A DNA stretch of 64,000 nt, from positions 64,787 to 128,786 of IMG/VR virus record IMGVR_UViG_3300040801_000976; one strand, given 5' to 3'. Position numbers and translations under genes: made by a program. The notes beneath the pieces were generated by a model. It made no database searches and was not told where the DNA came from. It saw only the letters and a program-made list of their open reading frames with translations. This DNA comes from a virus. Of the stretch, positions 633 to 31,881 are shown piece by piece; the stretch's first letter is position 1; each line of letters starts with the position of its first letter.

Positions 633-634
633 TA

Positions 635-1285: not shown

Positions 1286-1307
1286 CAATTAAATTATTTA
1301 CAAAACT

Positions 1308-1631
1308 ATGAATTCAAAAAAAGATTGGTTAAATACCTACGGCAATAAGTCGGTACGAAAATTTCAAATGGGTGGTCCTATGGAGGGCGGAGATATGACA
1401 GGAGCAGGTCCTCAAGCAGGTGCTGCACCAGAAGCCCCGGGCGGTAATTTAGACGCAATGTTAGCAGAATATGCTCAGTCTAGAGACCCTCAATTAGCGG
1501 TTCAAATTTGTGACATGCTGGTTGAACTCATTGCTTCACAAGGTGGTGGTGCAGGAGCTCCGGCCGAAGGTCCTGCGATGGCAAGGAACGGAGCTAAGAT
1601 GTCAAAGAAAGCACCTGTATTTAGAGCTTAG
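1308..1631 (+). CDS. small Gly/Ala/Pro-rich putative virion cargo protein
   Basis: 107-aa ORF with RKFQMGG motif, low complexity, followed by a hairpin. Confidence 0.6.
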   Translation: MNSKKDWLNTYGNKSVRKFQMGGPMEGGDMTGAGPQAGAAPEAPGGNLDAMLAEYAQSRDPQLAVQICDMLVELIASQGGGAGAPAEGPAMARNGAKMSKKAPVFRA

Positions 1632-1649
1632 AAATATTTTATAAGTGTC

Positions 1650-1680
1650 AAGGTTTAGGTAGTTTGACTACCTAAGCTTT
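1650..1680 (+). terminator. stem-loop, probable intrinsic terminator or processing hairpin
   Basis: TTAGGTAGT-TTG-ACTACCTAA perfect inverted repeat after the stop at 1631; short T tail. Confidence 0.55.
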
Positions 1681-1709
1681 GGTTAATTTAATAAAGGAAA
1701 CATTTAATT

Positions 1710-2921: not shown

Positions 2922-2922
2922 T

Positions 2923-4164: not shown

Positions 4165-4170
4165 CTTTAG

Positions 4171-4202
4171 AACCCCTCGCCGCCTGGTGCGGGGTTTTTT
4201 TC
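4171..4202 (+). terminator. rho-independent terminator
   Basis: GC-rich hairpin AACCCCTCGCC-GCCT-GGTGCGGGGTT followed by a T run, just after the stop at 4164. Confidence 0.75.
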
Positions 4203-4247
4203 TGTCTTGATAATAATATTAGTGAAAAACTAACAAAATATACATAT

Positions 4248-6250: not shown

Positions 6251-9200
6251 ATGTCAGATAATATCGATAAAAATATAAACGAAGACCTTACTCAGCAAGA
6301 AAACAATATTGAAGTTGTTGAGCAAGAAGTTAAAGATGATGTAAAACAAGTCGACGAGACTAAAGAATTATCTTTTTTCGATAAGGTTATACAGGCTAAA
6401 ACTAAACCCACGGAAACCTCTTACTTACCAGGTAAAGAAGATTTCAAAAAAGAGTTAGAAGAACGGGCTGGTAGAGAGTTAGAAGATGAAGAGGTTGACG
6501 AGGCTTACAAACATATTTCAGATTATTATAACGAGTTAGCTCGAGAGGAACTAGAAAACGCACAAGTATTTAGTTCCTTTGATTATATGTTTGAGGGCGC
6601 GGAGGATGATGTAAATTTTGTGGACGAAGGGGATTATCAACCTACTTTGGATGTTACTGTAGAGACTAACTCTGGTGCAAAAAGAATTCTAGATACATGG
6701 ACAGACCCAACCAGGTCAGTCAGAAAAGGCTCTATCCTATCTAAAAAGTGGATAGACCATAATGGTGAGGTACGTGAGTTAAACACTGATCTATTTGACG
6801 GTATGGTTGGTAATAAAGAGTTCGCCAACGACGAGGGTAAAAATATTATAGGATATACTTATCTGCCATCGGATCCTTATGCTAGAGGAACTGGTCTTGT
6901 TAAAGCTTTTTACGAGGGTGAAGAACCAGACGGTGAGGTAGTAAGTAGATGGGATGCCAACGGTAGGTTTTTAAACGGAAATGACTTAGATTTCAGTACA
7001 TGGAAAGTTCCTATTGCGTCCACATTTAATTTTGCTGTCAACCTGGTAGATACGGCTCTAGCTCTATCAGAGAATGTTTCTGTAATAGCAACACACGGAG
7101 GTGTTACAGACACGGAATTCTACAAGGATTTACGTGATGTTAGAAATAAGTTACAATCGTTCAATGTATCTAAGTCTGACTGGGATCAGCAAAAGATGTT
7201 TACTGTAAACAATATGGTAGACCTCGGTATTAATGTAGGTTTACAATTACTTACAGCTCGTGGGTTAGCAACAGCTTTTGGTAAAATATTAGGAGCTTCC
7301 GCCAAATCTGTTAAAAAACTATCTGCCATGCAGCAGACATTACAACAAACTACGGATCCTGTTAAGAAAAAGGCACTAAGAAGTTCGATTGATAAACTAA
7401 CTGCTACAATACAAAAGGCCGGTAAGGGTAGCCAGAGAAGTACTTTATTTATGCTAGGTGCTATGGCAGCCAAAGACGCTTCACAAGAGGCTAAACATGC
7501 TGGTTTTACAGACTTAGAGTCAGCTTATATCTATGCAGCTAGTTTAGGTGGTATGATGTGGGTGAATCAGCTAAGTAATCTAGGATTCGAGCGCGTGGGG
7601 CTAAATAGAGCTTCTAAAATTACTAATAATATATCTAAGCGTATTTTTAATGAAAATACAGCGGCTAAAGTAGTAAAAAATCCTAAGAGTTTAAAAGGTT
7701 TAGTTAGTAAATATTCCGATGATTTAATAAAAAAGTATAAAGAGGCAACAAGTAAAACGGGCTACGCATCTCATATGCTCTCTGAGGCAACGGAAGAGGA
7801 AGCTGAATTACTTATGCAAGAAGTAGTCAATCATACGGCAAATTTATATTCTGCTCTTGGTTACAGGGAAGAAGATAGACCTAAATTTAAGACAGTATTT
7901 GACGAGGGGTATTGGGGAGAATTCATGACAGAATCTGTTATGAGTGTATTAGGCGGTGCTATGGGTGGTGCTATGGCTAGAGGATTATTTATACCAAAGT
8001 CTGAGTTAAATAAGATCAAAGAGTCAGAATTACCCGTTACAGGTAAAGAGGCTGATGCTTTTAAACGTGTAGCATATATGTCTACCAGAACGCAGGAAGG
8101 TGCTCAGTGGGAAGATATGATGATGACCAAGATGAAAGATAAGAGGGAGAAAGGTTTATTTGGCAGAGAAGATATTTCTACCCTATGGGATAAAGAGTTG
8201 GGTAGGTATAAAAGAATGACGGAACTAACGGAGGAGGAATCAGAGAAATATTTTAGCCAGGCGGAGACTGCTTATAGAGCATCAATGGCACAGTATCAAT
8301 ACTACAAATTAGTATTCGCAAATGAATCTGGTAAGTTTGAAGATATAGTAAAAAATAACCCAAATTTTGCCCATTTAACAGAAAGCCAGCAGTTACAAGA
8401 TGCTACTATGGATAAGATACAGAGAAAATCTGAAATTCTTAATAGTGCTGATTTGGGTACTATGGAAATAGATACTCTGATTACTAAACTGTCTGATACC
8501 AAAAACAAACTTAAAAAGGATGAGGATGGGAAGGTAGATGATGCTAAATACCAGGAAGAGTTAACTGAGGTATCAGGAGCAACCAAGTTATCTGTAAAAG
8601 ATGTAGAAGAGTTGGTTGAAATAAATCAATTTCAAAAAGATGTGTCGTCTGGCGCAATACTAGAAAATGCTTTTATAGACTTACAGCTTACAAGCGAAAA
8701 CTATAGAGATGTATTTTCCCCCGAAACTTTTAGAATGCTTATAGAGTCTGATTCAGAGGCTCAAGATAGTTATCAAGAAAGTAAATTATTGCTAAAAGAG
8801 CTTCAGGACAAAATGTCTGAGTCATTCGATAAAGTATCGGAAGAAGGTGGTCTAACAGACGAGCAGAAGTCTATATTACTTTCTGGTAAAGCTGTGTTAA
8901 ATCCTGACACAAAAGAAAGGTTATTGGAGGTTGTTAGAAATACAGGAGTGCCGTTGGTTGAAAGGAAAAAAGCCGCTGCTATGCATGTTTTGAACTCAAT
9001 GAAAACCAATGGATTATTACAGAATGAGGAGAAGTATTATGGTCAACAGTTAAACTTTTTAGCTAATCTTGAAAAGACTGTTAATACTGACCCAAGTGCT
9101 TTACCACAGACCATAGAGGGTATGTTGGATAAGATACCACCAGACTACGAAGTATATCCATTTACCCAGAATGAAGAAGTAGAAGCTGTAAAATTAGCTT

Positions 9201-12200
9201 ACGCAAACAAAACTTTAAAGAAAATTGCTACGGCTAAGTCTGAGAGTGAATTATCTGACATTTTGTACGATGAAAAAGATGTTACTGCCGCGAACTACGC
9301 TGCGGATTATGCTACACCAGATTTTCCATTCGCAGGTACCAGTTTAGAGGGTGAACCTCTAATGTTTAACGAATCACCTAATGCCGCTCCTATATACGAT
9401 GCCGTTGGTTTTTCAGAAGACGCTAAAGAAAAAGCACAATTACTCGACGCTATAAATAACACGCAGTCAGTAGAAAACGCAGATGAAAATAGGCCCGATG
9501 CACTGTTTGATTTTGACGATAGTAATCCAAACAAAATAAAATACTTAACTTCTAGTTTAGAAGAAAAATATTTATCGTTAACCGGTGGTGAAGAAAATCC
9601 TCGTACTTTTGCTAATTTATCAGGAGCAAAAAAACTAGCTGATAAATTACGTATGCGAATAAAGCAACTACATTTTCTTGTAGAGAATGTTCCTGCTCTA
9701 CTAACAATACAACAAATTAACGAAGAACAGTTTGGTGAATTAAGAGATGATCTAACATACTTTACGAAGCATCTAAATAAAATAGTAGATACTAAAGCTA
9801 TACGTGAAAACGATGCTTATAAATCGCAGTATTTATTAAACCTAGTTCAGCAGCAAGTCAGTCTAATTAAATTATTAGAGAAAACGGAAAGGTTAACTAA
9901 GTTAGCGGAGAATTCGTCCGTGGACTTACAAAAAGCTTATTTTGGTGATGCTGTGAGCTACGCGTCTGATTCAATAGAATCAGTATCGGCAGTATTTTTA
10001 CGAGATGGAGGGCAAGCAGTTATACAGTCAAATCCTGCATTGGAAGGTATCGAAGACTTAACTATAGGCTTGAACTACGAAGATACAGATCAAATAAATG
10101 TAAAGAAGTTGTTCGATTCGTTGTACGAAATTAGGAGAAAACTACAAAAAGCTCGTGTCGACAACCCAAAATTTGTAGATGAGTTAGTGACACATCTTTC
10201 TGATAAAAAAGGTACAGATAAAAGTTTAATTAATACTATACTACTTACACTATCCCCATCGGATTATATTTTTAGTCGAATGAGGTCTGTATATGATGAA
10301 GCGATAAAAGCAGCTGACAGTGTAGAGAAGCTAGAAGCTTTACAATTACCTACGATAAGCCAATTACGTTTAGCGGAGGAAGCTGTTACTGCGTCAACAA
10401 CATCGTTTCTGTATTATGCTAATATTTTACGCGGCAGTAAAACGAAGATGTTACCCATAGCGGTATTTTCTGGAGCTCAGGGTACAGGTAAAACCCAGGT
10501 AGTTGGTAAAGATGCAGCTAAATACGCTCAAGAAGTTCTATATAAGTTAGAACAGGATAAAGCATCTAATAAGTTACCGAAAATATTATTTGCATCTAAC
10601 TCGGAAAGTCAGGCTAAAAATTTACGTGTTTCAGCCGAAAAGGGTGATGTTGTCAGCGGAAGTTTAGAAGGTAAGAAAGATGTAACACAGGAAGATCTCT
10701 GGAACTTATTCGTCGGCTCAGATTTATCTGTAAAAGATATTGCTGATAAACTTACTGACATAGGAGCTATTTTTTATGATGAAATAGCTGATGTAGAGTT
10801 TGATGCCAGTACTGCTGGTGTTAAGAAAGGATTCGATAATCCTAAAGAAGCTTTTGTCTTAAATGCTATTTTAGCAAAACTTTCTCAGGTTAACGATTAT
10901 AGGAAATCACTGAAGCAGGAAGCTCTGGTATTAATAGGACTCGGGGATACGGCACAGGGCGGTTATATGGAAGGATCACCTAGTCCTAGAAACCCAGACG
11001 GTAAAGAACAATTAACAGGTAGAGTATTTTCGGTAACAGATCCTACTACTAGTGTTTATAAAGGTTCTGTAGAGTTAAAACACCCGTTCAGATATCGCGT
11101 AGGAGAATTAATAAAAGCTCCTAAAGAAATTCTTGAGAAATTAGACCCGAGGATGAGGTTAGATTCCAAGGAGATGCAGCCCGTTACATTTAACTATAAT
11201 TTCGAAGAAGGTACTTTTACTGGAGTTAAAAAATCTAATACTTGGAACGATATAATAAACGACGAAGATTTAGCTCAATCTATTAGAACTAAACTAGGCG
11301 CACCAAATAGTGGAGGAAACTTTACTATATTAGTTGTTACTGGTAAACATAGTTACGATGGAGTTGTAGACTCTAACTCTGCATTGGGTAAATTGTTGAA
11401 GGAGTATGAGGGAGATGAACGTATATTACTACGTGGGTTCTATAATGTAAAAGGTTCGGAAGCAGACTATGTATTAGTTAATATGCCTAAAGATCATTTT
11501 ATACACTCTAAAGAAGAGGTGGAATCACCGGACTTTGCTTCCCCAGAGCAACTTACAAACAGACTACGTATAATGGCTTCTGTTATTGGTAGAGCACATA
11601 CGTTTACCAATATAGCTGTGACGGGAGATTATCCCATACACTCTAATAAAAGTACTACCACCATTATTCCGGTCAACGAAACCAATGAGTTTAAACGTGC
11701 TTGGAGTGAAATGTTATCTGGAGCCATATTATCTAACTATGACGTGATTCCAGAGTCAGTAATACCTAATATTGAAGTAGGAAAAGAGTCTGATAAAAGT
11801 GGTTTTGATACATCGGTTACCGACGAAGAGGGTATTGCCGGAGTGTCGGATCCTTATACTTCATCCGCCACAGAATCTACGGAGTATGCAAACTCTGTTG
11901 CCAGGGAGTTGGGGATAGAAGAACTTACGGAAGATAATGTTATTGCGGCACGAGAGTTAGCAAAAGAGTTGGAAGATAGTTCCACAGGTACAGATAAAGA
12001 TAATGCTGGTTCGCTTAAAGTGTTGCTGAACAATATCTTCAGCGTGATAAAAAATGAAAATGAAGGTGAGGTAATATCATTTGATGACTCAGATCCAATT
12101 GGTAATAATTCTTCTTTCCAGAATATGTCAGACAAGAAGATTATGCAGGAAATAGAGAAACAGGAAGGTAAGATTCTGTTTTTCGGACAGTTAGGTCAAG

Positions 12201-15200
12201 AAGTTACGCAACAAAAATCTTTAGAGAGTAAAAGAAATTATAGTTCTCACCTTTACGACAATGTTCCGTCTGCAGAAAATTTTAAGCCTGAATTCTATAG
12301 TGCATTGGGTTTAGGACCTAGTGGTACATCAGGCATGAGAGATTATAAATATCATGTGGTTAGTTATGAATTTGCTACACAAAACAGGGTTCAGGCATTT
12401 AATCATGTTATAGTAGCCGAAAATAAAAATGGAGAAAAGTTTATAATAGGAACATTAGGAAAAAGAGCTAACTACGATCCTAACGGTGATATAGCTAAAT
12501 GGATGGATGCAAGAGAAGAGAAGTTAAAGTTAATAACCGAAGCCTACGCTAACGATGAAGAAGTTAATGTTGACGAAGTACTAACTCCTAGCGAGAGAGT
12601 GTCTTTTAGTGAAATGCGTAACGACTTTATGTTACCGGATTCCGGTAGAAGAGGATCTAAATTTAACAAACAAAATAGATTCTTCATCTACAACGAAGTA
12701 CCTAACGGCGCTAATATAATAGATGGTGTAACGGTAGGTAACACTGACTCAGGTAATAGTGTAATACTTAATTTAGCAAAGCAAATTGACGAAGTTAGAG
12801 CGGAATTACCAAATATAGACAAACTGTCTGCTGGGGAATTTGTAAAAAGTAAGCTCGACGACGCAGACACAGTAAATAGAATTGATTCTTTTAAAGAGAA
12901 GGGTAAATTTATACCTGTAAAAGATATAGTTAGTACAGATACTAAACAAAGAATTAATCCGTTCGAAATCATAAACGGTAATATGTTTTATTCTATAGGT
13001 GGTTATGACATATTAGGTATCAAACTACGAAGAGGAACTGTATATTTTGCTAAATCAACAAAGGCCTGGGTTCCAGTGCTAGGATTAAATACCACGGACA
13101 ACACGCTAATACTGGATAACGAATCCTTAAAGCCGGGTGCTAACTACGACGCGGAGTTTACTAAAATCTCTAATTCATTAAGAAATTTACGTGTAGATAA
13201 AAACTTTCAAAAGAAATTTTCTGATAGTACTTTTTCTGAAAGAGTAGCATCGTTGATGGGATATAAAACAACTATATTCTCAGAAATAAGTAATAAAAAT
13301 AATTTAAAAAAAGAATTACGTAGAATATCAACAGAAAATACAACAAACACGTTTTTTGGTAATTCTAGGTTAACACTAAAAACAGCTATTAAGTTATGGA
13401 ATAAAACAGGAGCGCCTTACTCTATTTCTAAGCCTTATGTTATAATGAGAGGAGAGAATGCTGGTAAATCTATGATATTTTATTCGTTTGATAGATCTAA
13501 AAATTTACTGGATATGTCAGAGGATGCTATTATGAGTGAATATAACGCGATGTTGGATAATATGAAAAACAATCCTACAGCGATGACTTCCAATAGAAAT
13601 AATCTAGGTTATATATTACTGGACTCTAAACCAACTACAATTCAAGAACTAAATGAATTGTATCTAGGTGTGAGTAATAAAGGTATAACAGATAAATTTA
13701 ATAAAGTTGTTATAAGAGGTAATGCCGAAAGTAGATTAATATCATTACTGGCTCATTTACATATAGCGATAAATAGACCTACTTCTACTTCTAAAGTATA
13801 TCAATTACTAGAAGATGTGGACGATAACATCAATAAAGATGCGGTCTATTCCTGGGTAAAATCTAAAGGAGATTCTCAACTTAAGGATATTAGTACAGTT
13901 TTGCGTTCTATATTTCAGGATGAAAATCTTGGGAAAATAGCCATGACTAATACAGATGAAGCCTTAAATAATTTTATAGAAGATATTAAGAAGTATAAGG
14001 ATAATAGACAAATGTTAGATTCAATTTATGATTCTTATTATTCTGTTAATGCAACACAAGAATTATTAGATCGTTATGGTATAAATAAAAATAACATGAC
14101 AGATTTACTAATAACTGGTGGGGAAGGTTCGGTAGGTAAAATTGTATTGAACAAACATGGCGTACCTGCGGTATATGGAACAGAATCTACTGTAATAAAA
14201 TACATTCCTAGTTCTTTGGTTAATAGTTTAAGTCAAGGTGAAAAATCTTCTATAACACCTTCGTTGGATCTATTGAAAATGTTCACTTTAATACATTCTA
14301 CTTCTCTTACAGAGGATAGTAAGAATAATATCTTTGAACAGTTAGATGAGATTATGCCAAATATTGATGGTTTAGGTAAAGGCTTAATGGTATCACCGCT
14401 TGCTGTCGACAATAAAAATCCTATATCTAGAGCGATAACATCAACAAAACAACCTTTAAGTGAGATGTTGACAACTAATGTAAAGCAGATAAAGGAACCT
14501 AGTATAGTGTTTGATGTACATACAGAACTTGATTCAATATCAACTCCTCGAAAACAATTTAGAGTTGCCGAGGAAAAAAGTTCGGAAAATAAGAATTTAT
14601 CTGAAACCACCTATGAAGATAGAATTAAATCTTCAGACCTTAGAGAACTAAGTAGAATACAGAAAGAAGTAAATAAAGATAACTCATTGTCTTCTGATGA
14701 AAAATTAAATATATCCTTAAAGATAAAAGAGAGAGTAAAGAGTTTGAGGGGAGAAGGTTCGTCTGTTTTTGATTTTAGAAAAATGTCTTTAGTAGAATTT
14801 GTTGGTGATACAGTAACTCCGGAAGTAAAAGTTGTACTGGAACAGTTTGATAAATTACGACCAGTAATTAAAAATAAAGAAGAGTTAGATAATATTTGGG
14901 TACAGGGATTAATTACTACACTTAATAATCAACTAAACTCACAGATAAGTAAGTATATATCGAATATACAACAATCGTCTGGAGAAATGGTACAACTATC
15001 AGACATCCAGGTGGTCGAGGCTGCTAAAACAATAGTTGAAAATAACGAATCTATACCCAAATTAGATATTGAAGGGTTTGATGTGTCATCGTTAGAACTT
15101 AAATGGGATACTAATCAGGACAACATGGGAAATAGATTGGCTATGTTATTGTCATGGTCTGTAGCAGAGGGTGATGAGAAAGCTAAACTTAGAGATATGC

Positions 15201-15793: not shown

Positions 15794-15828
15794 TCTAGGA
15801 TTAACATATTAAAAAAAATAAGAGAAAG

Positions 15829-21800: not shown

Positions 21801-24800
21801 TTATTATAATTCTTTAAATAAAAATAATACATTATCCTTATCTCCATTATTACCCGAAAGTAGTATAAATAAAGCTTATGAATCTTTTGATATAAATAAC
21901 GAGGAACAGTTTTTAAAATTTTTAAATTATATAAAAAGACAAAAATCTGACCCAAGATTTTTTACAAACCAGTTTAAATCACAACTTCAATCACAACTTG
22001 AAAACGGAAACTGGCGTGCTAAAGAAGCAGAATTCTATATGCCTCCTATGCATCAGTCCGCTTTTTTAATAGATTACGGGGATTCAATACAAGATATAAT
22101 TGGTACTCAAGAACAACCAGATGTAGAAAGGGTCCGTGATAATTTATCTGAAGAAGAAATTAACATAATTACTAATAGATTTAATTCCTCTGAAGCACAA
22201 TCCATAAAAGATAAATTGAAAAATACTACTTTTTTACGGTTAAAGGAGGAACAGAACCAGCATATGTTAGATTATTTCTTAGCTAAAATTAATAACTTAG
22301 AGAAATTATCGCGTAAAAGTAGTCTTAAAGAATCGGAGAAAGAAAGTTTAATGCGTAGGTCCCCGTTATTTTTATTACAAAATTCAGTGCGTAATAAAGA
22401 TACTTTAAGTAAAGCTGTAGATAAATTACTAACCAAAGAAGTGGTGCTGGCTAATAGTTCTAATACAAAAGACCTAATTACACTAAAACAAGAGTTAATA
22501 AACAATAGAGGTAGTGCTTCGGAAATACTAGATGATGCCTTATTATCTTTTAAGGAAAAATGGTCCGCTACTCTAGCTAATAACTTTGAAAAAAGTTTGA
22601 CTTTTATAACTGCACGAATTCCTGCACAAGGTAAACAATCTTATACTGTAGGAAAAATAAAGAATTTTATTTATTCGACCAGAAATGCGATATATGGTCC
22701 TCTAGAGATGTTAACCGTAACTGGCGCAGACTATGATATAGACAAACAAAATAATATGGCATGGGATGTAGACGACCACGGTACCGTTATTGATTGGACA
22801 CCTTATCTTGATAAAAGTGGTAAGATTAATGCTGTTAAGATTAATAATGTAATTAATAAATCTACTAGTGAATTTAGGGAACAATTAGAACAATTAGGTT
22901 TAACAGATATAGATAATAGAGTATCTGCTTTTAAAAAGAATAAAATAAACTTTATATCGAGAGCAGTACAAAACTTTGTGGTAGATAGATTAATGAAAGG
23001 TGCTTTAGACCCAGTAAATGGTATCGAAGCAGCTACAGCAGTATCTATGCGTAAGTTAGGTGTTATAAAAGAAGTGATGGATAGTTTTAATTTTGAAAAT
23101 TTAGGTATAGATAAATATAAATTAACTACTACTGATGGTAAATATAATTTTTCTGAAAGTTTAGTTAAAGCTATTCAAAAAAGACAACATGCCTTACCGT
23201 TCTCCCCCAGCACTAAAATGATTTACGAAAGAGTAAATATGGATGGTAAAACCGGCGTCGGTATTTATGCTTCAGCACTGAAAGCTTATTTAGCAACCTA
23301 TTATGCTTGGTTAAAGAACAATAGTATCACTAATTATAATTCTACTTTGACTAATAGGTACACTATGGATGATATATTAAACGCTAGCGAGAAAGAATTA
23401 CAGTCAATACATGATGCTATCGTTGACGAGGATACTGATAGAACTTGGATAACTTTTACCAATAAATTTGCTCCTAGTATAAATAGGGATGCTAAGAAAA
23501 TACCAAAAGGTACAAAAACTGATTTATCTTTGGATAATAATGCTTTACATTTTATATGGAAAGATCCTGAAACTGGGTTATTTGAGATAAAATCAGATAT
23601 TTATTCTTTAGCTAATACTGGTAAACACATGCCTTCTGTAGGAAAAACATTATCTAAGATAAAAACTCAGAGAGCTAAAGAAGTTTATAAAAGAATTGGT
23701 TTTGCAGACGAACAAGAGCAGGTAGCTTTATTATCCAAATATATGGATGATTTAAATTTGTTAGATAATTACAATACAGAATCACAGGCTTGGGAAGACT
23801 TATCCGAATTATTATCAGCGGCCACAGATAATGCTAAAGAACTTATACTAGGCAAAATTGGATCTAATGCCACAACCAGTTCGATTATATCTGTTATGGT
23901 TGTTTTAGGAATAGATTTACAAAACGCTTTACTATTAATTAATGACACTAAAATAAAAGATATTGTTAGTTTAGTAGAACAAAAATCTAGATTGTTAGGA
24001 GTCAAAGACTCTTATATACCAGCTTTATCTAAACTATTAGAGAATAAGATAGATAAATATAAGCCAAACGAAGAGTTGTCTGACGAAAAAATAGAACAGT
24101 TAGTGAGGAAATCTGCTACCGCAAATACACCTGAAAAAGAAATTAACGCGCGTATTGAGAAGCAAAAAGTTCTTCGTAAACACTATAATCCTTATGAACA
24201 ATTTATGTTCTTTACCAAAGCAGCAGATGAATTAACTAAACTAAGTAGAATACTATCAATAAACCAAGGCTTACCAAATAGTGAATTTGAAGTATTTAAC
24301 TATATCAGAAATGTAGAAGATGCTATAGGAGCACCAATTGAAGAGTTTGTGGGAGATTCTAATATGTCAGCAGCAGATATTGATGCTAAAAGATTAGAGA
24401 TAATAAAAAAATACGACGTTACAAAAACTGTATTTAATATTCCTTATATTTTATTAAAAAATGAACATTATTTTTCGTATATCAAAAGTTTATTAAAAAG
24501 CAATAATATATTAAAAAATCTATCTTATACAGTAAGATTAGTATATAATGACTTAAATACCAACTTACCTGTAGACAAAACTTCTGTGACAAAAAGCGAG
24601 TTTACTAACTATATAAATACATTAACTGATTTTGTTATCTCTAAATTTTACAAATCTCCATCAGTAAATAGTATTGTAAATTTAGGTAAATATGGTTCTT
24701 ATGACTTATCCAAGGTTTCTTCTGGCGATACTGATATAAAAGGTAGACAAGAATTTATAAAAGAATTTCCTGATATATTAAATAATATTAAAAAATCTTC

Positions 24801-27246
24801 CGAAGAACTAAATAATAATACATTATTATCTCAAATAAGTCGTAAAGAAACGGAGACAGATATTATAACTAAAGAATCTTTTGATATACTAGGTGGTATA
24901 AACACCGAAACTACCACAGTAGGTGATATAGCTAACTTCAAAATATTGTTAAAAAATATTCAAAAAACACATCCAGATTTATACAATGCTTTATTTAATT
25001 ATAGCTTGATTATAAACAAAGGTGGTTTAGGTAAATCTTCTTTAACATCTTTATTTGATTTGAAAATATTTGAAGACTTTGAAAACTTTTTAAATACTAT
25101 TGAAAAGGAAAAATTAATAGAAGAAGAATTTCATAGTTTATCTAAAGATGTAAAGGGTTTATTAATTCCTATGTTATTGCAACAATTCCCGACCAAGACC
25201 GGTGTAAAAATATTAGAAAAAACCTTAGATAAATCAGGCCTGACGGATGAAGAATTAGAGCAAGAATTTTCAGAGTCTCAAGAAAGTGAAGAGAATCTAC
25301 ATGAATTCATGGAAGAGGATTTTTCTAATATTCACAGGGATTATAGAGAGGAGATAGCTAAAAACTACGATGTTAGTAGTATATTATCTGCAAAAATCAG
25401 TGGTAATATACACGCTCCGGATATTTTTAAAAGTAGAACTAACAATTTGGTGTATGCCTATAATGAGAAAGTGAATGATTATGTACCTATAACCAAAACA
25501 ATATCTAACAGGGTTATACCTATAGATATAACCACAGATACTGATGTATTAAATAATCTTTCTACAATAGGATATGATTGGGGGTGGGAAATAGAGATGC
25601 CTAACGGAACAAAAGCTAGATTACTAAATCTATCGGACAGGGCCAAAGGTACTTATAATGTACTACAACCCGACGGTACTGTGATACAGATGAAAGATAT
25701 TGATATTATGACATTTAATCCAAATGTTAGATTATATTACGAAGCTATAAAAATCCTACCAGGTAAATTTGAAAAAAAATATCCTTATAATTTTTTCAAA
25801 GATAAAAATACTGGTGATATAACTGTAAATGATGGTGATAGTGCTATACCTATTAAAATCGAAGTAAAAGACACAGATGTAATTAGAAGTTCAGATAAAA
25901 CAGTATTAACATCATACTTGGTAGACCTTATTAATAGTAAGGTAAAAAATAAACCTAAAGAGAATAAAAAATTTGATGATATATTAAAGTTATTTGATGA
26001 TCTAGTAAATGAAGTAGAAGTAGCTATACAGCTGTCGTCTATGCCAGATAATACTGATGTGTTTGAAGCTCAACAAGCCATAAAATCAAATCCTAATCCC
26101 GCTATCAATCATGTAAGATCTGTTTTATATAATCTACCTCTGGTACTAAGATATTCATTATTAAGAAAACCTGAATCACAAAAAATAGATTATATTAAAA
26201 AGATAGTAGGTTCTAATATGAATATTACTTCTTGGCCTAAAGTACGAGGTTCTAAAGTAAAAGATATGAGTGTTCCTAAAATATTTGAGTCGGATATAGA
26301 ATTACTTACCAAGGAAGAGTTAGCTTCCCAATTACAGATTATGGATTATTTACCTATATTAAAGTGGGTAGGTATTTCAGAGAATGTTTATAGAAAAGCT
26401 ATAAATAAAAAAGTTTTGGTAGATGGTAATAAAGTATATACAGATCCAACTATTATAAAAAATATAGACGAAGATGTAAAATTTGATAAAGCTATACCTA
26501 TTCCAGAAGTAATCAGACAAAACTCACTAAATAATATTAGTCCTGTAGTTATAGAACGATTGGGTGCTTTTGTTAGAAGTAGATTTACTGGTGTTTCTGT
26601 TAAAGTGTTGGGAACATCTGATATAGTGGCACAGTATGGTGAAAAATACAATCACGCTGCTTTTGTGAAAGATGGTACTATTGTGTTAAATAGAGACAAA
26701 GCCACATTAGATAGTGCTATGCACGAGATGGGCCACCTATATCTTGCAGAGATTAAGAATTCAGATAAAGAATTATATATCAATTTAATGAGTTTAGCTT
26801 CTAGACACGAAGACTATAATTTAGTAAAAAAGTTATACCCTGAACTAAGTCCGACAGATATTGCTGAAGAAGTGTTTGTTGGTTTATTATCTAAAAATAA
26901 ACGATCCAAACTTGAGAATGCGGTAGTAAATGAGATGGCAAATACATTGTCTGATGAAAATGGGAATCTTTGGGGTAAAGTAATAAACTTTTTTAGAAAT
27001 TTATTCAAGGGATTTGTTGGTAATTCAACTATAAATAACGACTTTATCGACTTAGACACTAATTTGACAGAAGCGTTAAACACTATCAGTGATGATATAT
27101 TATATGGGAAAAACTCTAAACTATATAACTTTACATCTAGTTTTAAACAAGATATTAAAAAATCTAATCCTTCATATGAAATGAGTACATCGGAAGCACG
27201 CGCTTATTTAGAAGAAAGAGGTTTCATAAGATGGATTTGTAATTAA
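15829..27246 (+). CDS. virion RNA polymerase (crAss-like two-barrel single-chain RNAP, phi14:2 gp66-type) with C-terminal zincin-like domain
   Basis: ARIPAQGKQS...TGADYDIDK catalytic DxDxD (22729-22743), GKTGVGIYA, SAATDNAKE; HEMGH...AEE near the C-terminus (from 26722). Confidence 0.88.
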   Translation: MKRKISCVPTLSSISQRMVNSIKKGKGMAPSELYLFVVKDVMPTILGEQDVRKELDNIAKGEFNSNLGELLMGIGMSINQIAKLSNDKSQTVSTTDMISIWRDTSTKLLANLEPTPGSGVSNISLDENTTQELTSDDEVEAPSKVDTEDIPGEISIRKPLGSKNINEVLDHYLVGDLRKIPDSLQSFFQSMISKVWLSGDNQTNFTSEAIKAKLRDSLNAVVRNYYSGNAVEMITSSIVSRKNFISTDNLNTLIFNAESAIPSDSKLVHEDVDFGIKYYTNSSILGTDNMPMLLVVGEDPTMMLEQFLTNEELFGERAGNNTVIPESLQDGIDRKYSSIDRETVQDNYYIPEVRNTYFAQIINNELDTFIRSYAPMLDSTYKEIFRTSFGDIQSFGSSMANKLTKINISTTPLLYKGREAKDVKSSLGSLKSELSKSSNYYGTLANSSLLSELDTNGNKMISVRLDNKEYSGVMLDLGPKNLIVVNDGNSWLVPISNVDGDVSMVQAQELFRDSSNIDMFYEAAVISAVDFLNRNATDIEGLRNNTTEAKFDKSTFFNIIKNTNTPLTEDVDNINLFSNEGGRKFLQESDLEIASEVFQFLPGNIADASRYLARIASDTSSVYKDIARSLYYRFFKKGKYLVTSINPETGRLETTEQMSMYERYHRFNDTVARNSLISLMVQLRSSSLDNKAMVQDNEFIVTNVQKGTTLQSLISEIENSNTEYFAGKRVTPDKVYENFTVKELRGNEYAIEFYRFSSKSSPDIKFYIKDLGTNNDGRAKGNKFEVVEKDDSSSLNLENIGILSGFMGLPAFLSNKNFYNQLYDDSVTGNDVSNFFANVIALKLANGNKLLGNKNYTSSGASKLALVRSEGDIKHTFANNMYGYTNLLDTTIEKVLGNSKRAYIMSPEGHKLSVSIITNKAKSKQELVDQVKDNKLSESNLYRHSEFATGDMRLTNNGVTKNGIRVGVDGKGNAKLDSLEHVIYLMENAYLAHAEKRNFLEYLSQAGTMSDRTTVNLDGVSFESMQALPVKEGKLDEELLRKKFFEVQRNSQKGINESLLNGWNGFIRKIKSGEIVMNSGNIKLLPNSFTSISSLYNTLEKVKFDRNEVLKKSGLTDKSFIDDSKKIANIRYSIIMMDNVISSQGDGLRSLFLDTYLNTFKQYLKDVEYKISPKAVSILANRFPSALSSSNGFEHNRVIAQEILTRSFFYQDTIAEQNLISILSGNVFQYKSKIPSVFEKLNAKNFKSDIDKLRWLGEQKGYENKSIVESTFAELEKLGSEGNRLGFIKSILDSNLSDKQKLSLLYFDDLYTQITPMYVDRVKRNQGSGTSFQNYVFAADNSSGFLIDKTSKEILVKDPETVVKLLGSGSLSQDIYDAVQMAHPLFFYKHNMSLGDKFSNFRSRSIIKDVNASNFEDTSEYLLQKKATFPMFNWEFIFRGTPEHNNLFSLMNSRIKLDIDGLFLDENPLLPFPNFGTTISEEVLLNHGEYLGELLVDGNKTTASELLYLHNNNEIDLSTLDIKSNKVYKTGFYTLQDIYNYYGGAQGDLDAYNSADNKTAFIEEFPFGWTWFKIGEIITNYRGVENNYPIRNSYISKLGFTSQSKTGSRNINEETILSDKLSKYDEVEYAEIPNRFSGPVLDAEHEPDTTAELSMSEEAQNNMVSMITQVMSASIAQGESFNEVEAMFGALGTLSDLQLNIINEKLSDYEASSSSLNKLSDSVRRYALELAQETMTTRKDPGSTSAFLGLGTERLDKISFDLKQILPLVRQSLNAHLNSQTVRFKMKGGQYIVSPSHDQIKTYSFGKSTNLFRSSMNSGNNDVNSMIVDAVKTDTLPNGWELNTVTSLDQFDRYHTNTDTVFIREDKESVSDLVPVKVSELLKDKSNLISLIENGLISSAWVNPDPGNTVSAKARSIEGNTLSWLNYFKDGKNIYNTDEYYSYYLAGKAPLYLSNLKENTKNNAEYLSKARKFFSDETEGSGVPKLLWARYYYNSLNKNNTLSLSPLLPESSINKAYESFDINNEEQFLKFLNYIKRQKSDPRFFTNQFKSQLQSQLENGNWRAKEAEFYMPPMHQSAFLIDYGDSIQDIIGTQEQPDVERVRDNLSEEEINIITNRFNSSEAQSIKDKLKNTTFLRLKEEQNQHMLDYFLAKINNLEKLSRKSSLKESEKESLMRRSPLFLLQNSVRNKDTLSKAVDKLLTKEVVLANSSNTKDLITLKQELINNRGSASEILDDALLSFKEKWSATLANNFEKSLTFITARIPAQGKQSYTVGKIKNFIYSTRNAIYGPLEMLTVTGADYDIDKQNNMAWDVDDHGTVIDWTPYLDKSGKINAVKINNVINKSTSEFREQLEQLGLTDIDNRVSAFKKNKINFISRAVQNFVVDRLMKGALDPVNGIEAATAVSMRKLGVIKEVMDSFNFENLGIDKYKLTTTDGKYNFSESLVKAIQKRQHALPFSPSTKMIYERVNMDGKTGVGIYASALKAYLATYYAWLKNNSITNYNSTLTNRYTMDDILNASEKELQSIHDAIVDEDTDRTWITFTNKFAPSINRDAKKIPKGTKTDLSLDNNALHFIWKDPETGLFEIKSDIYSLANTGKHMPSVGKTLSKIKTQRAKEVYKRIGFADEQEQVALLSKYMDDLNLLDNYNTESQAWEDLSELLSAATDNAKELILGKIGSNATTSSIISVMVVLGIDLQNALLLINDTKIKDIVSLVEQKSRLLGVKDSYIPALSKLLENKIDKYKPNEELSDEKIEQLVRKSATANTPEKEINARIEKQKVLRKHYNPYEQFMFFTKAADELTKLSRILSINQGLPNSEFEVFNYIRNVEDAIGAPIEEFVGDSNMSAADIDAKRLEIIKKYDVTKTVFNIPYILLKNEHYFSYIKSLLKSNNILKNLSYTVRLVYNDLNTNLPVDKTSVTKSEFTNYINTLTDFVISKFYKSPSVNSIVNLGKYGSYDLSKVSSGDTDIKGRQEFIKEFPDILNNIKKSSEELNNNTLLSQISRKETETDIITKESFDILGGINTETTTVGDIANFKILLKNIQKTHPDLYNALFNYSLIINKGGLGKSSLTSLFDLKIFEDFENFLNTIEKEKLIEEEFHSLSKDVKGLLIPMLLQQFPTKTGVKILEKTLDKSGLTDEELEQEFSESQESEENLHEFMEEDFSNIHRDYREEIAKNYDVSSILSAKISGNIHAPDIFKSRTNNLVYAYNEKVNDYVPITKTISNRVIPIDITTDTDVLNNLSTIGYDWGWEIEMPNGTKARLLNLSDRAKGTYNVLQPDGTVIQMKDIDIMTFNPNVRLYYEAIKILPGKFEKKYPYNFFKDKNTGDITVNDGDSAIPIKIEVKDTDVIRSSDKTVLTSYLVDLINSKVKNKPKENKKFDDILKLFDDLVNEVEVAIQLSSMPDNTDVFEAQQAIKSNPNPAINHVRSVLYNLPLVLRYSLLRKPESQKIDYIKKIVGSNMNITSWPKVRGSKVKDMSVPKIFESDIELLTKEELASQLQIMDYLPILKWVGISENVYRKAINKKVLVDGNKVYTDPTIIKNIDEDVKFDKAIPIPEVIRQNSLNNISPVVIERLGAFVRSRFTGVSVKVLGTSDIVAQYGEKYNHAAFVKDGTIVLNRDKATLDSAMHEMGHLYLAEIKNSDKELYINLMSLASRHEDYNLVKKLYPELSPTDIAEEVFVGLLSKNKRSKLENAVVNEMANTLSDENGNLWGKVINFFRNLFKGFVGNSTINNDFIDLDTNLTEALNTISDDILYGKNSKLYNFTSSFKQDIKKSNPSYEMSTSEARAYLEERGFIRWICN

Positions 27247-27260
27247 TAATTATTATTTCG

Positions 27261-27293
27261 AGAGTACGGTGTAAATTACCGTACTCTTATTTT
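27261..27293 (+). terminator. intergenic hairpin, possible terminator or attenuator
   Basis: AGAGTACGGT-GTAAATT-ACCGTACTCT 10-bp perfect stem followed by TATTTT. Confidence 0.55.
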
Positions 27294-27306
27294 AAACTGA
27301 ATAAAG

Positions 27307-30300
27307 ATGGCAAAAGATTGTAAATTTGTATATTTTGATGGTGACGGTAAGCCTTCTGTAGATTACTATAATTATATCAATAAACATGGTCATGTTAATG
27401 CAGAAACTAATTATATTAATAAAACTTTAGCATTAGCAACTACTAAGTTTCAAAAAGATATTGATTTGAGAAAAGTACTTGAAGATGAGGCTAATTCTCC
27501 TAAATCAGATGTTAGTTACAAAGCTGTAACAACAGTTATATCCGAACACACACAGGATATTCCTGATGAAGTAGTTACCTTTATGGCTAAACAGCAGCGT
27601 ACACAAGATATTATAAATGAATATAAAGAACAAGGTAATAAAATTGATTGGAAGAAAGCCAATAATCAAGCTACTAAGTTTTTTGAAAAAGAAGATAACG
27701 CAGAAATATCTAGTCTATATAAATCCGAAGTCAGATCTAAATGGTCCAATCAAGCTAAACAGGGAGATTTAGTCCATGAATCTATACAATATGCTTTGGA
27801 AGAAAGGGAGGATAGCGAAGACAAAAGTTTAGGTAAAATACCGGAGTTTGTAGCTAAATCCAGGAGAAAGATGGATGATCGTTACGGTGAAGGAAATCAT
27901 TTGAGTTTTAACACTATTTCTCTAGTATCTGATATTGTAAAGGAAATCACCAATTTAGAAAATAAATACAAGACTACTTTTCAGGTGTTGCCTGAAGCAG
28001 AGCTAAAAAGTAAGAAGTTACAGATAAATAATCAAAAGTTGTCTGGTAAAGTAGATATTTTACTATATTCTCCACAGTTAAATAAAGCTGTAGTGATGGA
28101 TATTAAAACCAAATCTTCGGACAAAGTACATAATTTTGATAATGTTAATCTACCTAAGATGACAGGTCCGTTCTCATCTTTAGTGGGTAATTCCGAAGAG
28201 ATGGCAAACGTACAGACCACTATTTATTCTGATATTTTAGAGAATGATTATGGTGTAAATGTATTAGAAACAAAAACTTATGTGGCTACAGGACAACTAA
28301 AACAAGATGGTAATGAAGTTGGTAATCGTGAGTGGAGATTCTCGTATTTAGATCCCAAAACCACAAAGTTTGTTGAAGGTCAAAGATACTCTGGTTTGAC
28401 ATACGATACTTATGATAAAAGTGATAGTGATTTAGAAAAAGATCTAAGTATAGATAAAGCTATAGATTTTTTATTTAAAGGAAAATTCGCCACAACTATA
28501 GATAGAAAAGATCAGTTTGTCGAAAGTCAGATGTCTACTATACAAAAATCAGAAGAGTCTGGTAAATTTTATTGGAGGAATACGTTTGATAGAAGTTTTG
28601 AATATGCCGTTACTACTGATGAATTAGAGAAAAAAATAAAAAAGGCGTATGATAAATTTTCTGAGAGTAAAAAGACGGCATCGCAGGATTTAATTTATTT
28701 GTTTAAACACGGAGACGCTCCTAAAGATTCAATATGGAATAACGAATTTTATCGAAGAAAAGCTAATAAACTATTCGAGGGTATAAATCCTGAAACACAT
28801 ATTTTACTAAATAGTTCTCAAGTAAAAAGTCTAAAGGGTATAGGTAAAGATATACTTATAGCTCAAGACAAGAATACAAAAGAACTTACATTAATGTCTA
28901 TATCTCCTACATGGGATATGCAACAATATTTTCACGAAGAGGGTTCGGACGAAGCTAGAACTACCATCCTAGGTCCTTATATGACAGATACCACAGTATC
29001 AAAACTATATAATGAAGGTATAATACCTAAAGCAACAACACACTCTATGAATATGCTGAGATTAGCTTTAGTTGCTGCTGACCTTAGAAAAAACAATCCT
29101 TCTTCTATGGGTAAAGTAAAAAAACTAGTATCTCTAACCGTGATGGGGGAGAGTCATAACTTCAGGACCTCTTCTATGGCAGAACAAATAGCCCTACTTC
29201 GTGAATTACATTCTGTTATTAGCAAAAATAACGGTGATATACCAAAACCTCTGGATGATATTGTGATGGATAAAGATTTACGAGATCCATCTAACTACAA
29301 TAGTAAATATTTCGACGATTTTGTTTCTAGATTTATTCATGACCAAGATGTATTTGGTGGTATTAAGATTAGAAAAGAAACACAACAAGCCATAAATAAT
29401 CTTAGGAAAACACTAGAAGAAGCTGGTAAAGACGAGGATAGTTTGTACGGACAATTTCGAGTAGAACAGAGTTTAATGAATTATGGTAAACAAGTATATA
29501 CAGAAGTAGCTGGTATAAAGAATGTATCTCTTACTGAAAAAAAAGCAATTATAGCTGATTCCCGTGTACAAGAAGCTATGAATGCATATTTAGCATATAA
29601 GAATCTAAAAGTTAATACAGACCCTTTGTTTAAAGGAAAATTTCTACATATGCTTAATTCTGCTAAAACAGCTAACGATCCTTATGCTGATATGTTAGAT
29701 AAATTAGTAGCTCAACATGAACAACGTGTCCGAGAAGATATAATGGAATTTATGTCTGAGCATGATCGTTTGGTAAAAAACCTTGTCAAAAAAGAGGGTA
29801 TAAATGCTGCACAACAAATGGTTTCATTAGATTTTTATGAAAAAATATTTAAACCATTAATGCGAGATGAATACCGATTCGATGAGAATAATACGGAAGA
29901 TTGGATGAGGTTCAAAGATCCTAAAGATAAAAATAATGATCTAAACGATGACCAGCGAGCTTATATTGAATTCTTTAATAAACATATTAAAGATGCCTCA
30001 AGGGCTATGTTACCTAAGAAATTATTCACGAACATGTTTCCTGATCCAGAAAGTGGTATAACAAACGATTCTTGGAAAGAAGGTTATTTACCCATTATAC
30101 CCGGTACTGCTACCGGCGAGATGCAGAAAACCATGAATATGGAAAATGGACAGGATGTTTTAGAGGTTATAAAAAGATCATGGAGTAAAGCTTTTAAACC
30201 AACGGATGATGGCAAAATAGAAAAAGAACCATGGAGTTACGAGGCGGCTTTTATGGAACAAGTTGATGCTAATAAAGGACGTGGTACAAGACAAACTAGA

Positions 30301-31881
30301 AATTTGTTAGGTATGACAGATGAAGGAGAAGCTTTACCACAAAAACGAGACGTAGAAAAAAATCCCGTGGTACTATTGAATATGTATGTTGTTAATGCCT
30401 TTCGATCTAAACATATGGCTCAAGCAGCGTTTGCATATCATGCTTTAGACTCATCTTTAATAGCTCAAAGTTTGTTAATGAAAGAAGCCGGCGTAGACAT
30501 AGAGCCTTTACGAGAAATTTTACGTAATGTTAGTAAGATAAGGATACATAATAAATTCAAGGATGAAGACTTGATGGGGAATATGCTAGACCTAATGAAT
30601 AGGTTTAGTTCCGTTGCCTTATTTGCTGGCTCATTACGCCAATTCTTTACAGAAGGAGCTACAGCTACTGCACAAACTGGATCATCTTTGTTAGGAAATG
30701 CTTTTAATAATATATTATTTAAAGGAGAGAAAAAATATACTGCTAAAGATTATGCCTGGGCTTCAAAACACGTTGGTTCTGGTTTTGGACATCAGGTTAT
30801 GATTGAATATGGTCTATATAATTCTGATCTAGGGCAATTCTCATCTTCTGATTATGTAGCTACAAAAAAGAATTCTTTATATCAAACAAAACATTTATTT
30901 GCTCCTATACACCAGGTAATGAAACAATCTTTTCAAACAATTACTATGTCACAGATGCATAAAGAAGGTGTGACGGAGAAAGCGTTTGAGTATAATAAAG
31001 ATCTTGGTAGATGGTCTTATAATGAAACTCAAGATCCTAGGTTTTATGTTTACAATGCAACCACACCATTAGAAGGTCAACAATCTAAACCACCAGAAAC
31101 AAAAGAAGAGTTAAGCAGGTATAATCTATGGAAAGCGCATAGAACAACAATGCAGCAAGAGGGTAGTGGTATCAAAAATAATCGTATGACACGTCCTTTT
31201 ACTATCGATCACCTACAATCTATGAAAAACTATACAGTAAGATTACTGGGTGCCATGGATTCTTCACAGATGACAGCTATGGAATATGCTGCTACCGGAC
31301 GTGCTCTCGGCAAATTCAAAAGGTGGATGAGGCAAAAACTAGACAATATATACGCTAAAACTTACAAGTCAACGAAGGAAGGTCAGTGGGTTGAAGGAGA
31401 TAATGGTTGGGAATTTGTTGCCGAAGAATTTGAGGGTTATGTACAATCTTTTATGGGTTTAGTAAAAGAAGTGAGAAAACAAGGATGGAGTAATGCTGTA
31501 GAAAATATGTCTAATAGACGAAAAGAAAATTTATCAAAATTACTAGCAGACTTATTTTTATGGATGATCCTTATGTACACTGTTAATTTGTTGATGGAGG
31601 ATGAATTATATGACTCTAAGTTAGGTAAAGAAGTGGTAAAAGGTATGGGTAATGCCGTGGGTGATATCATGCCTATCCAGGGTTTATACGGAATTACTAC
31701 AAGTAGTCCTATGGCTGCTGTAGGTGTAACTTCGAATATAGGATTTAATTTTTTTAGATCCGTGGGGTATGCATTTACTTTAGATTTTGAAAATGCTAAC
31801 AACGCAGCTAGTAAAGCAATGGAATCCTTTGGATTATATAGATTTACAGATGGTTTAATAGAGTTTGCAGAAAATAAATAA
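27307..31881 (+). CDS. large virion ejection protein (1524 aa) with N-terminal PD-(D/E)xK nuclease-like domain and C-terminal hydrophobic segment
   Basis: GDLVHESIQ...PEAEL...GKVDILL...VMDIKT...QTTIY resembles the RecB/Cas4-type nuclease motif order; LLADLFLWMILMYTVNLLM near the C-terminus. Confidence 0.7.
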   Translation: MAKDCKFVYFDGDGKPSVDYYNYINKHGHVNAETNYINKTLALATTKFQKDIDLRKVLEDEANSPKSDVSYKAVTTVISEHTQDIPDEVVTFMAKQQRTQDIINEYKEQGNKIDWKKANNQATKFFEKEDNAEISSLYKSEVRSKWSNQAKQGDLVHESIQYALEEREDSEDKSLGKIPEFVAKSRRKMDDRYGEGNHLSFNTISLVSDIVKEITNLENKYKTTFQVLPEAELKSKKLQINNQKLSGKVDILLYSPQLNKAVVMDIKTKSSDKVHNFDNVNLPKMTGPFSSLVGNSEEMANVQTTIYSDILENDYGVNVLETKTYVATGQLKQDGNEVGNREWRFSYLDPKTTKFVEGQRYSGLTYDTYDKSDSDLEKDLSIDKAIDFLFKGKFATTIDRKDQFVESQMSTIQKSEESGKFYWRNTFDRSFEYAVTTDELEKKIKKAYDKFSESKKTASQDLIYLFKHGDAPKDSIWNNEFYRRKANKLFEGINPETHILLNSSQVKSLKGIGKDILIAQDKNTKELTLMSISPTWDMQQYFHEEGSDEARTTILGPYMTDTTVSKLYNEGIIPKATTHSMNMLRLALVAADLRKNNPSSMGKVKKLVSLTVMGESHNFRTSSMAEQIALLRELHSVISKNNGDIPKPLDDIVMDKDLRDPSNYNSKYFDDFVSRFIHDQDVFGGIKIRKETQQAINNLRKTLEEAGKDEDSLYGQFRVEQSLMNYGKQVYTEVAGIKNVSLTEKKAIIADSRVQEAMNAYLAYKNLKVNTDPLFKGKFLHMLNSAKTANDPYADMLDKLVAQHEQRVREDIMEFMSEHDRLVKNLVKKEGINAAQQMVSLDFYEKIFKPLMRDEYRFDENNTEDWMRFKDPKDKNNDLNDDQRAYIEFFNKHIKDASRAMLPKKLFTNMFPDPESGITNDSWKEGYLPIIPGTATGEMQKTMNMENGQDVLEVIKRSWSKAFKPTDDGKIEKEPWSYEAAFMEQVDANKGRGTRQTRNLLGMTDEGEALPQKRDVEKNPVVLLNMYVVNAFRSKHMAQAAFAYHALDSSLIAQSLLMKEAGVDIEPLREILRNVSKIRIHNKFKDEDLMGNMLDLMNRFSSVALFAGSLRQFFTEGATATAQTGSSLLGNAFNNILFKGEKKYTAKDYAWASKHVGSGFGHQVMIEYGLYNSDLGQFSSSDYVATKKNSLYQTKHLFAPIHQVMKQSFQTITMSQMHKEGVTEKAFEYNKDLGRWSYNETQDPRFYVYNATTPLEGQQSKPPETKEELSRYNLWKAHRTTMQQEGSGIKNNRMTRPFTIDHLQSMKNYTVRLLGAMDSSQMTAMEYAATGRALGKFKRWMRQKLDNIYAKTYKSTKEGQWVEGDNGWEFVAEEFEGYVQSFMGLVKEVRKQGWSNAVENMSNRRKENLSKLLADLFLWMILMYTVNLLMEDELYDSKLGKEVVKGMGNAVGDIMPIQGLYGITTSSPMAAVGVTSNIGFNFFRSVGYAFTLDFENANNAASKAMESFGLYRFTDGLIEFAENK

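Follow-up and report, generated by a model that had tools for sequence, protein, structure and literature searches.

Background

In the virion of cyanophage A4, as described in a cryo-electron microscopy study, Cys1715 of the ejection protein gp27 is disulfide-bonded to Cys5 of gp26 (PMC12002296). We report here on a 64,000-nucleotide stretch of virus DNA (the window; positions 64,787 to 128,786, i.e. the second half, of the 128,786-bp IMG/VR record IMGVR_UViG_3300040801_000976), in which three consecutive giant genes encode the proteins p1, p2 and p3, where p2 is a putative virion-type RNA polymerase protein. Together they carry four cysteines (Cys), all close to termini that face each other in gene order, and comparison with relatives suggests that these Cys act in pairs and link the proteins into a chain. 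Coordinates below refer to the window (position 1 being its first letter) unless stated otherwise, and Cys positions with a minus sign are counted from the C-terminus, -1 being the last residue.

In the sequence record of A4 (Anabaena phage A-4L), gp27 comprises 1717 amino acid residues (aa) with the sole Cys at -3 and gp26 1114 aa with the sole Cys at 5. The likeness to the window thus consists of two consecutive ejection proteins with one Cys each at the facing ends. A4 differs in that it has one link only, whereas the chains described here have two or more, and RNA polymerase is mentioned 0 times in the main text of the A4 article (PMC12002296), the available part of which is silent on Cys depletion, on conservation and on gene splits. 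Searches using phmmer with the chain proteins, and with the profile of p2 homologues (alignment A1, see below), gave no similarity to gp27 or gp26 of A-4L, and the resemblance to A4 is confined to the Cys signature and the proposed mechanism.

Another close parallel is the cargo block of the cultured crassviruses phi14:2, crAss001, DAC15 and crAss002, in which a giant protein is followed by a polymerase with a DFDxD motif and then by an associated protein. The window has the same Cys pattern, but its proteins are larger and very divergent. Proteins of this module have been found in the virion by mass spectrometry, according to the annotation and to PMC10172136, and the three chain proteins of crAss001 are given there with masses of 262.5, 276.9 and 154.5 kDa (about 694 kDa together). 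The same paper reports disulfides for gp57 and for the tail of the crAss001 virion, and crassvirus particles therefore do become oxidised; in the parts of that paper at hand the tail and gp57 are the only places for which disulfides are mentioned, and the words "cysteine", "Cys" and "disulfide" do not occur in the phi14:2 preprint.

Members of the Schitoviridae, such as N4 and DEV, likewise package and eject a giant polymerase together with two ejection proteins, but differ in that no terminal Cys rule has been reported for them. Their polymerase is a single protein of a different, T7-like type. Cys is strongly suppressed in the ejection proteins of this family, which are essentially Cys-free, because of their passage through the oxidising periplasm (PMC11445570).

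The original prediction for this locus, made from the sequence alone, had presented the linking of ejected proteins through terminal Cys as undescribed. This has to be narrowed, since the single bond of A4 and the Cys-free ejection proteins of the Schitoviridae are in print; the multi-link rule in crassviruses was found in no paper and is apparently new. Specifically, a terminal-Cys rule, a multi-link form or a tie to gene splits and fusions was not found for crassvirus polymerase cargo in a literature search that excluded supplements, the extended tables of PMC10172136 and the supplementary information of PMC12002296.

Results

Four cysteines in three giant proteins

The three genes are consecutive on the + strand. 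The first, p1 (6251..15793), encodes 3180 aa (356 kDa) with the sole Cys at position 3179; p2 (15829..27246) encodes 3805 aa (430 kDa) with Cys at 7 and 3804 only; and p3 (27307..31881) encodes 1524 aa (175 kDa) with the sole Cys at 5 and a bare C-terminus. Summed, the chain comprises 8,509 aa and 961 kDa. All four Cys codons are TGT and are located on the + strand at 15785..15787 (p1 Cys3179), 15847..15849 (p2 Cys7), 27238..27240 (p2 Cys3804) and 27319..27321 (p3 Cys5), as read directly from the sequence. Hence, the junction-facing Cys are at -2, 7, -2 and 5 in chain order, there is no further Cys in the 8,509 aa, and the outer ends of the chain, the p1 N-terminus and the p3 C-terminus, have none. 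The original prediction had given this count, these codons and the facing arrangement, and had added that both C-terminal Cys are penultimate and that the outer ends are Cys-free; all of its coordinates and numbers were exact. If Cys were placed uniformly, all four inner 7-residue windows would receive one each with P = 1.1e-11; restricting the four Cys to the six terminal windows still gives P = 0.019.

The N-terminal Cys depend on the choice of start codon, and starts downstream of them had been named beforehand as a point on which the idea could fail. The p3 start is safe, as its ATG lies 2 codons past an in-frame stop and no other candidate start occurs before codon 54. For p2 the ATG lies 8 codons past a stop and the next ATG is codon 18, so that, judged from this sequence, a later start could be used, yet the Cys7 column is invariant in relatives, which bears on the choice.

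Conservation of the terminal cysteines

To define the p2 family, a full HMMER scan was performed with p2 residues 1751-2900; it gave 173 relatives, and the 150 best-scoring ones were taken further. Among these, 64 were kept (at least 2,500 aa, starting with Met, the window's own protein excluded) and the other 85 rows, which were fragments, were left out; the 64 long homologues are pairwise <50% identical. Cys is present in the first 10 residues of 60 of the 64 and in the last 5 residues of 61, with both terminal Cys in 58 and exactly those two Cys in 31. The Cys frequency is 0.049% internally vs 12.6% in the terminal windows, and in nearly all lineages the terminal Cys are located at 3-7 and at -1 to -3.

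In alignment A1, with 32 complete homologues that are 22-34% identical to p2, the 48 invariant columns include Cys7, Cys3804 and the three catalytic Asp residues (see below), and Cys3804 closes a conserved L-x3-G-[FY]-I-x3-C tail. The rows of A1 were selected for completeness after the Cys map was known, and therefore the count among the 64 homologues is the unbiased figure. For the p3 family (alignment A2, 14 sequences, 15-24% identity) Cys5 is among 22 invariant columns. The conservation of the terminal Cys that had been predicted is thus borne out for p2 and p3, and as judged by these alignments the pattern is a conserved rule rather than chance.

Junctions, gene splits and fusions

The alignment was also used to search a public collection of viral sequences, which resulted in 437 pattern matches, 211 of them encoding relatives. 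The loci discussed below are the best 80 of these 211 and comprise 44 different architectures, or 20 clusters when the largest proteins are grouped at <=50% identity. A close junction was defined as a distance of -30 to +150 nucleotides (nt) between + strand open reading frames (ORFs) of at least 400 aa, and a junction was counted as positive with a Cys in the last 10 upstream residues as well as in the first 10 downstream residues. Cys were present on both sides at 97/100 close junctions for the 44 architectures, and at 50/51 with one representative for each of the 20 clusters; broken ORFs account for the exceptions in two loci (L020 and L078). As background, Cys was found at the N-terminus of 2/86 and 12/245 ORFs and at the C-terminus of 4/86 and 26/245 ORFs, i.e. 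an overall rate of 2-11% for ORF ends.

What is a single p2 in the window corresponds to two, three or four proteins in other loci, with at least 5 different cut positions on the p2 profile (for example 2534|835|1394 aa in L009, 3316|1129 in L014, 3178|333|549 in L029, 4913|474 in L005 and 1170|1729|... in L022). A Cys pair is present at every split of the p2 profile, including short links of 333-362 aa that have Cys at both ends. The undivided p2 of the window, which is two or three proteins elsewhere, has no internal Cys. The reverse case is seen in L022, where a 2,923-aa protein combines the C-terminal part of p2 with a p3-like region (residues 1452-2892) and has its sole Cys at position 4. 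That junction Cys vanish in fused forms had been predicted, and this together with the Cys pair at true splits is what we find.

Moreover, breaks of another kind carry no such pair. In eight loci (L011, L015, L020, L032, L044, L048, L056 and L067) the polymerase gene is interrupted by a gap of 228-1,073 nt (1,050 nt in L048), located at approximately position 2189-2243 of the A1 profile and thus shortly before the catalytic motif. Two of the gaps hold a Cys-containing ORF (229 or 246 aa, with 2 and 9 Cys). These gaps look like introns or homing elements. Among the 20 cluster representatives, a Cys pair at such a pseudo-junction was found in 0/6 genes interrupted by gaps of this length, as expected because the halves, if rejoined at the RNA level, would be translated as one protein.

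The same loci were used to follow the two outer chain ends. Cys is present in the last 10 residues of 0/39 last chain proteins. Five loci were extended upstream, by which four first proteins were completed (2,949-3,591 aa) with the fifth open at its 5' end; the four complete ones have a single Cys each, at -1, -5, -2 and -1, and an N-terminal Cys in 0/4. The cargo proteins upstream of the first chain proteins in the extended loci are Cys-free.

Taken together, the comparison indicates that the upstream C-terminal Cys and the downstream N-terminal Cys are selected together, and a pairwise link across each junction is strongly supported by it. An alternative is that each terminal Cys acts alone and not with the Cys of the neighbour, as an anchor to capsid, portal or DNA or by forming homodimers. 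For this we found no specific support, and it leaves unexplained the joint gain of Cys on both sides of splits (50/51), the double loss in fusions and the bare first N-terminus and last C-terminus; we therefore consider it very improbable.

With respect to the genetic code of these loci, 17 of the 80 yield long ORFs solely with TGA read through and 1 of the 80 solely with TAG. The Cys rule is kept in recoded loci, e.g. L051 with proteins of 1486|3111|1503 aa and four Cys.

The pattern in cultured phages

Among cultured phages, phi14:2 has four Cys in 5,398 aa, distributed as in the window: gp078 (1797 aa) at -1, the polymerase gp077 (2180 aa) at 3 and -2, and gp076 (1421 aa) at 3 (these GenBank names, gp078-gp077-gp076, correspond to g067-g066-g065). 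For crAss001 the Cys are at -3 in gp47, at 5, one internal position and -9 in gp50, and at 5 in gp49, and for DAC15 at -3 in gp078, at 5, three internal positions and -1 in gp076, and at 4 and one internal position in gp077. The crAss002 protein gp32 has Cys at -2 and is followed by gp33, in which the first Cys is residue 35, after Met33-Ser34. The sequence preceding Met33-Ser34-Cys35 (L092, MN917146, 9270-9374) is AT-rich. As Met33-Ser34-Cys35 matches the usual N-terminus of a chain protein, gp33 has probably been annotated with a start that is 32 codons too early.

The signature is also present outside the Crassvirales, in phages with Bacteroidota and cyanobacterial hosts. Phage phi17:2 (genus Lightbulbvirus; L093) has Cys at -1 in gp039, at 4 and -2 in gp038 and at 3 in gp036, with an unrelated 119-aa gene separating the last two links; the unclassified Leptolyngbya phage Lbo-JY46 (L090) has a 1552-aa protein with Cys at -1 and a 2748-aa protein with Cys at 4; and A-4L of the Saffermanviridae (L094) is the third. 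This suggests that the device extends beyond a single order.

In crAss001 and DAC15 the first chain gene is on the opposite strand, convergent with the second, and the Cys pattern is intact. Hence the Cys follow the order of the chain even where the orientation of the genes differs, as the original prediction had it for gene order, and no DNA or mRNA junction signal explains the pattern. This bears on the view that the terminal Cys are due to chance, to relaxed selection at the chain ends or to a nucleotide-level signal at the junctions such as translational coupling. Many junctions do overlap by 1-11 nt, which brings coding and start signals close to each other. Against this, the spacers at close junctions range from -11 to +120 nt, the first two genes are convergent in two phages and a whole gene separates two links in phi17:2; the uniform-placement probability and the background rate for ORF ends, both given above, are also hard to reconcile with it. 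We regard the probability of this explanation as negligible.

The cargo block and its neighbours

Six further cargo-block ORFs (192, 216, 107, 403, 413 and 661 aa) are located upstream of p1 on the + strand (54..6233) and contain 1 Cys in 1,992 aa. They are outside the chain because all of them lack a terminal Cys. Overall, the cargo block comprises 10 ORFs and 10,847 aa (positions 63803-96667 of the genome) with 5 Cys and is closed by the three giants; the Cys content of the remaining 86 ORFs of the genome is 0.75%. Of the small Cys-free ORFs of the block, one (54-632, +) has a DUF192 match in Pfam and another (635-1285, +) an SLT lytic transglycosylase domain, also by Pfam, the latter being what ejected proteins lead one to expect. 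On the basis of this Cys-free and lytic transglycosylase-bearing block, and of the proteomics of the cultured relatives, p2 is predicted to be packaged in the virion.

Directly 3' of p3 there is a gene for a 187-aa ferritin-like protein (31891-32454, +; Pfam PF00210, E 1.1e-15, with a weaker rubrerythrin match). In addition, the 60-nt spacer between p2 and p3 contains a 10-bp perfect hairpin followed by TATTTT (27261..27287, +; 27261-27270 pairs with 27278-27287), which looks like a terminator within the operon.

Motifs, domains and structure predictions

The catalytic D-x-D-x-D motif of p2 (D2301/D2303/D2305; 22729..22743, +) is invariant in 32 homologues. Residues 2299-2306 place the Asp triad in a conserved T-G-[AS]-D-[FY]-D-I-D-K context, which matches that of phi14:2 g066, crAss001 gp50, DAC15 gp076 and crAss002 gp33. 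This context is a mark of the crAss-type virion RNA polymerases, which are two-barrel enzymes with a DFDxD motif such as phi14:2 gp66. The A1 profile gave a weak match to crAss002 gp33 adjoining the catalytic motif (E 7.6e-7) and no match to phi14:2 g066, crAss001 gp50 or DAC15 gp076 at E <= 1; kinship to crassviruses is judged here on the cargo module alone. In the C-terminal domain of p2 an HExxH motif (H3632/E3633/H3636; 26722..26736, +) is nearly invariant in homologues. For the p3 family the invariant residues include G247, D250, K267, Q303 and Y307 (p3 residues approximately 247-307), and these are compatible with a PD-(D/E)xK nuclease reading.

Searches against PHROGs and Pfam gave no significant family for p1, p2 or p3, and specifically Pfam gave none at E <= 0.01 for p1 residues 1217-1983 (9899-12199) and none for either the C-terminal 355 aa of p2 or the N-terminal 400 aa of p3. 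Searches with p2 by phmmer among PDB chains, and with the p2 core by tblastn and with locus L058 by megablast in the phage collection, gave no match. For p3, the homologue searches by tblastn against phages, by a viral contig scan and by a word-based protein search (near lengths only) were empty.

AlphaFold2 modelling of the last 355 aa of p2 resulted in a mean predicted local distance difference test score (pLDDT) of 56, with confident prediction for residues ~121-240 of the fragment only, the Cys tail being outside this region. Using Foldseek, the p2 C-terminal model had no match in the PDB at E <= 0.001; a few of the weaker hits were zinc metallopeptidases, which do not count as evidence. 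Prediction of a complex of p2 3450-3805 with p3 1-340, both with alignments, gave scores of 0.45, 0.27 and 0.28 vs a mark of 0.32 and speaks neither way.

Other fates of terminal Cys were considered and rejected. A split intein with protein trans-splicing can be dismissed because the 1-6 residues between the Cys and the chain ends leave no room for intein halves, and Pfam detected no family in the end regions of p2 and p3 referred to above. Neither a signal peptide nor a lipobox precedes Cys7 or Cys5, which speaks against a lipoprotein signal. C-terminal prenylation-type boxes, which belong to eukaryotic chemistry, were likewise rejected.

Discussion

The nature of the link

Our comparative data suggest that the four Cys of the window constitute two functional pairs, p1 Cys3179-p2 Cys7 and p2 Cys3804-p3 Cys5, and we consider it fairly probable that these are head-to-tail disulfides that join the cargo into one thread. 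In an oxidised virion each pair would form an inter-protein disulfide (p1-S-S-p2-S-S-p3), and the result would be a nearly linear thread of 8,509 residues and ~961 kDa with the RNA polymerase in the middle. As the bonds would be placed 1-6 residues from the chain ends, the thread would stay thin, the joined parts being barely wider than a single polypeptide. All other Cys have been purged, by which wrong cross-links would be prevented and nothing else could cross-link the proteins or hinder their unfolding. The link would most likely set stoichiometry and order in packing and ejection, and the reducing cytoplasm would open it; the role of the link in ejection, the timing of bond formation and the opening by cytoplasmic reduction are all parts of the proposed mechanism. 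A mechanistic analogy is provided by two-chain bacterial toxins, in which one disulfide holds the chains together until it is reduced in the target cytosol. Here too a covalent link that can be cleaved by reduction would hold the translocated cargo together up to its arrival in a reducing compartment, but proteins, organisms and route of delivery are all unrelated and the analogy is one of mechanism only.

With respect to the chemistry, a disulfide would be the simplest one for this phage and for crassviruses. The original prediction had proposed head-to-tail disulfides, with metal bridges as an alternative. The comparative data strongly support the pairwise link that it supposed at each junction, and for the disulfide itself we rely on the A4 precedent and on the disulfides seen in the crAss001 tail. 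Comparative data reveal pairing and not chemistry, and the paired Cys could be joined by a bridging metal ion or an enzymatic thioether, in which context it can be mentioned that the crAss001 annotation includes a radical-SAM maturase-like gene. However, there is one Cys per side with no conserved His or second Cys adjacent to it, and in A4 the same signature has been resolved as a disulfide (PMC12002296). Hence, we hold a metal bridge or thioether to be improbable.

The main rival holds that the disulfides at the junctions serve as static staples within a cargo body folded in the capsid, as in A4, such that neither ordered threading nor exit as a single thread is needed. According to the A4 article, the bond stabilises a helix-in-cleft contact and the outer layer of the pre-ejectosome (PMC12002296), and the conserved L-x3-G-[FY]-I-x3-C motif at the p2 C-terminus points to a docked element and not to a loose tail. 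On the other hand, a staple does not require the extreme placement of the Cys (3-7 and -1 to -3), which is what one would expect of a thin thread, and the strict head-to-tail topology with bare outer ends fits a linear chain. We therefore judge the staple to be rather unlikely.

Several points weigh against cargo threaded through disulfides. Structural proof of such a bond comes from phage A4 alone, and for crassviruses we infer it. Many of the relatives are found in the anoxic gut, and virions are assembled in a reducing cytoplasm. The termini show no charge complementarity by which correct pairing could be guided, as the mean net charge is positive at both ends (+0.68 over the first 8 and +0.59 over the last 8 residues). 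Each protein is present in several copies per capsid, which is an estimate in PMC10172136, and mispairing or ring closure of p2 is conceivable given these copies. One terminal Cys is missing in 6 of the 64 long homologues, some relatives have their Cys at -9 or +10, and at the junction exception in L007 the upstream Cys is at -18. Finally, p1 has no sequence relative among the loci, even by iterated profile, and its equivalence to the upstream giants is therefore positional only.

A further-reaching proposal, which we put forward tentatively as possible rather than probable, is that the disulfides are surrogate peptide bonds. Each split of a gene for the giant cargo polyprotein would then evolve a Cys pair, by which one continuous thread is preserved and pulled through the tail N-to-C in the order of the chain, with host thiol reductases replacing a protease and cutting the thread into its working enzymes.

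Implications

Crassviruses are the most abundant human gut viruses. It is an open question how their cargo of ~5 MDa is packed, and how a multi-protein RNA polymerase is delivered in order through a narrow tail. The crAss001 structure paper states that the order is probably governed by packing and mutual interactions (PMC10172136), and a conserved covalent link between cargo proteins would be a concrete hypothesis for ordered delivery. For annotation, the Cys rule can be used to tell real gene breaks from intron-interrupted genes and to flag wrong starts. Moreover, our data suggest that the purging of Cys and the retention of the terminal ones belong together as parts of a single design, suited to proteins that must cross a channel unfolded. 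If the surrogate peptide bond proposal is true, the rule would be predictive and would apply to several phage groups beyond the Crassvirales.

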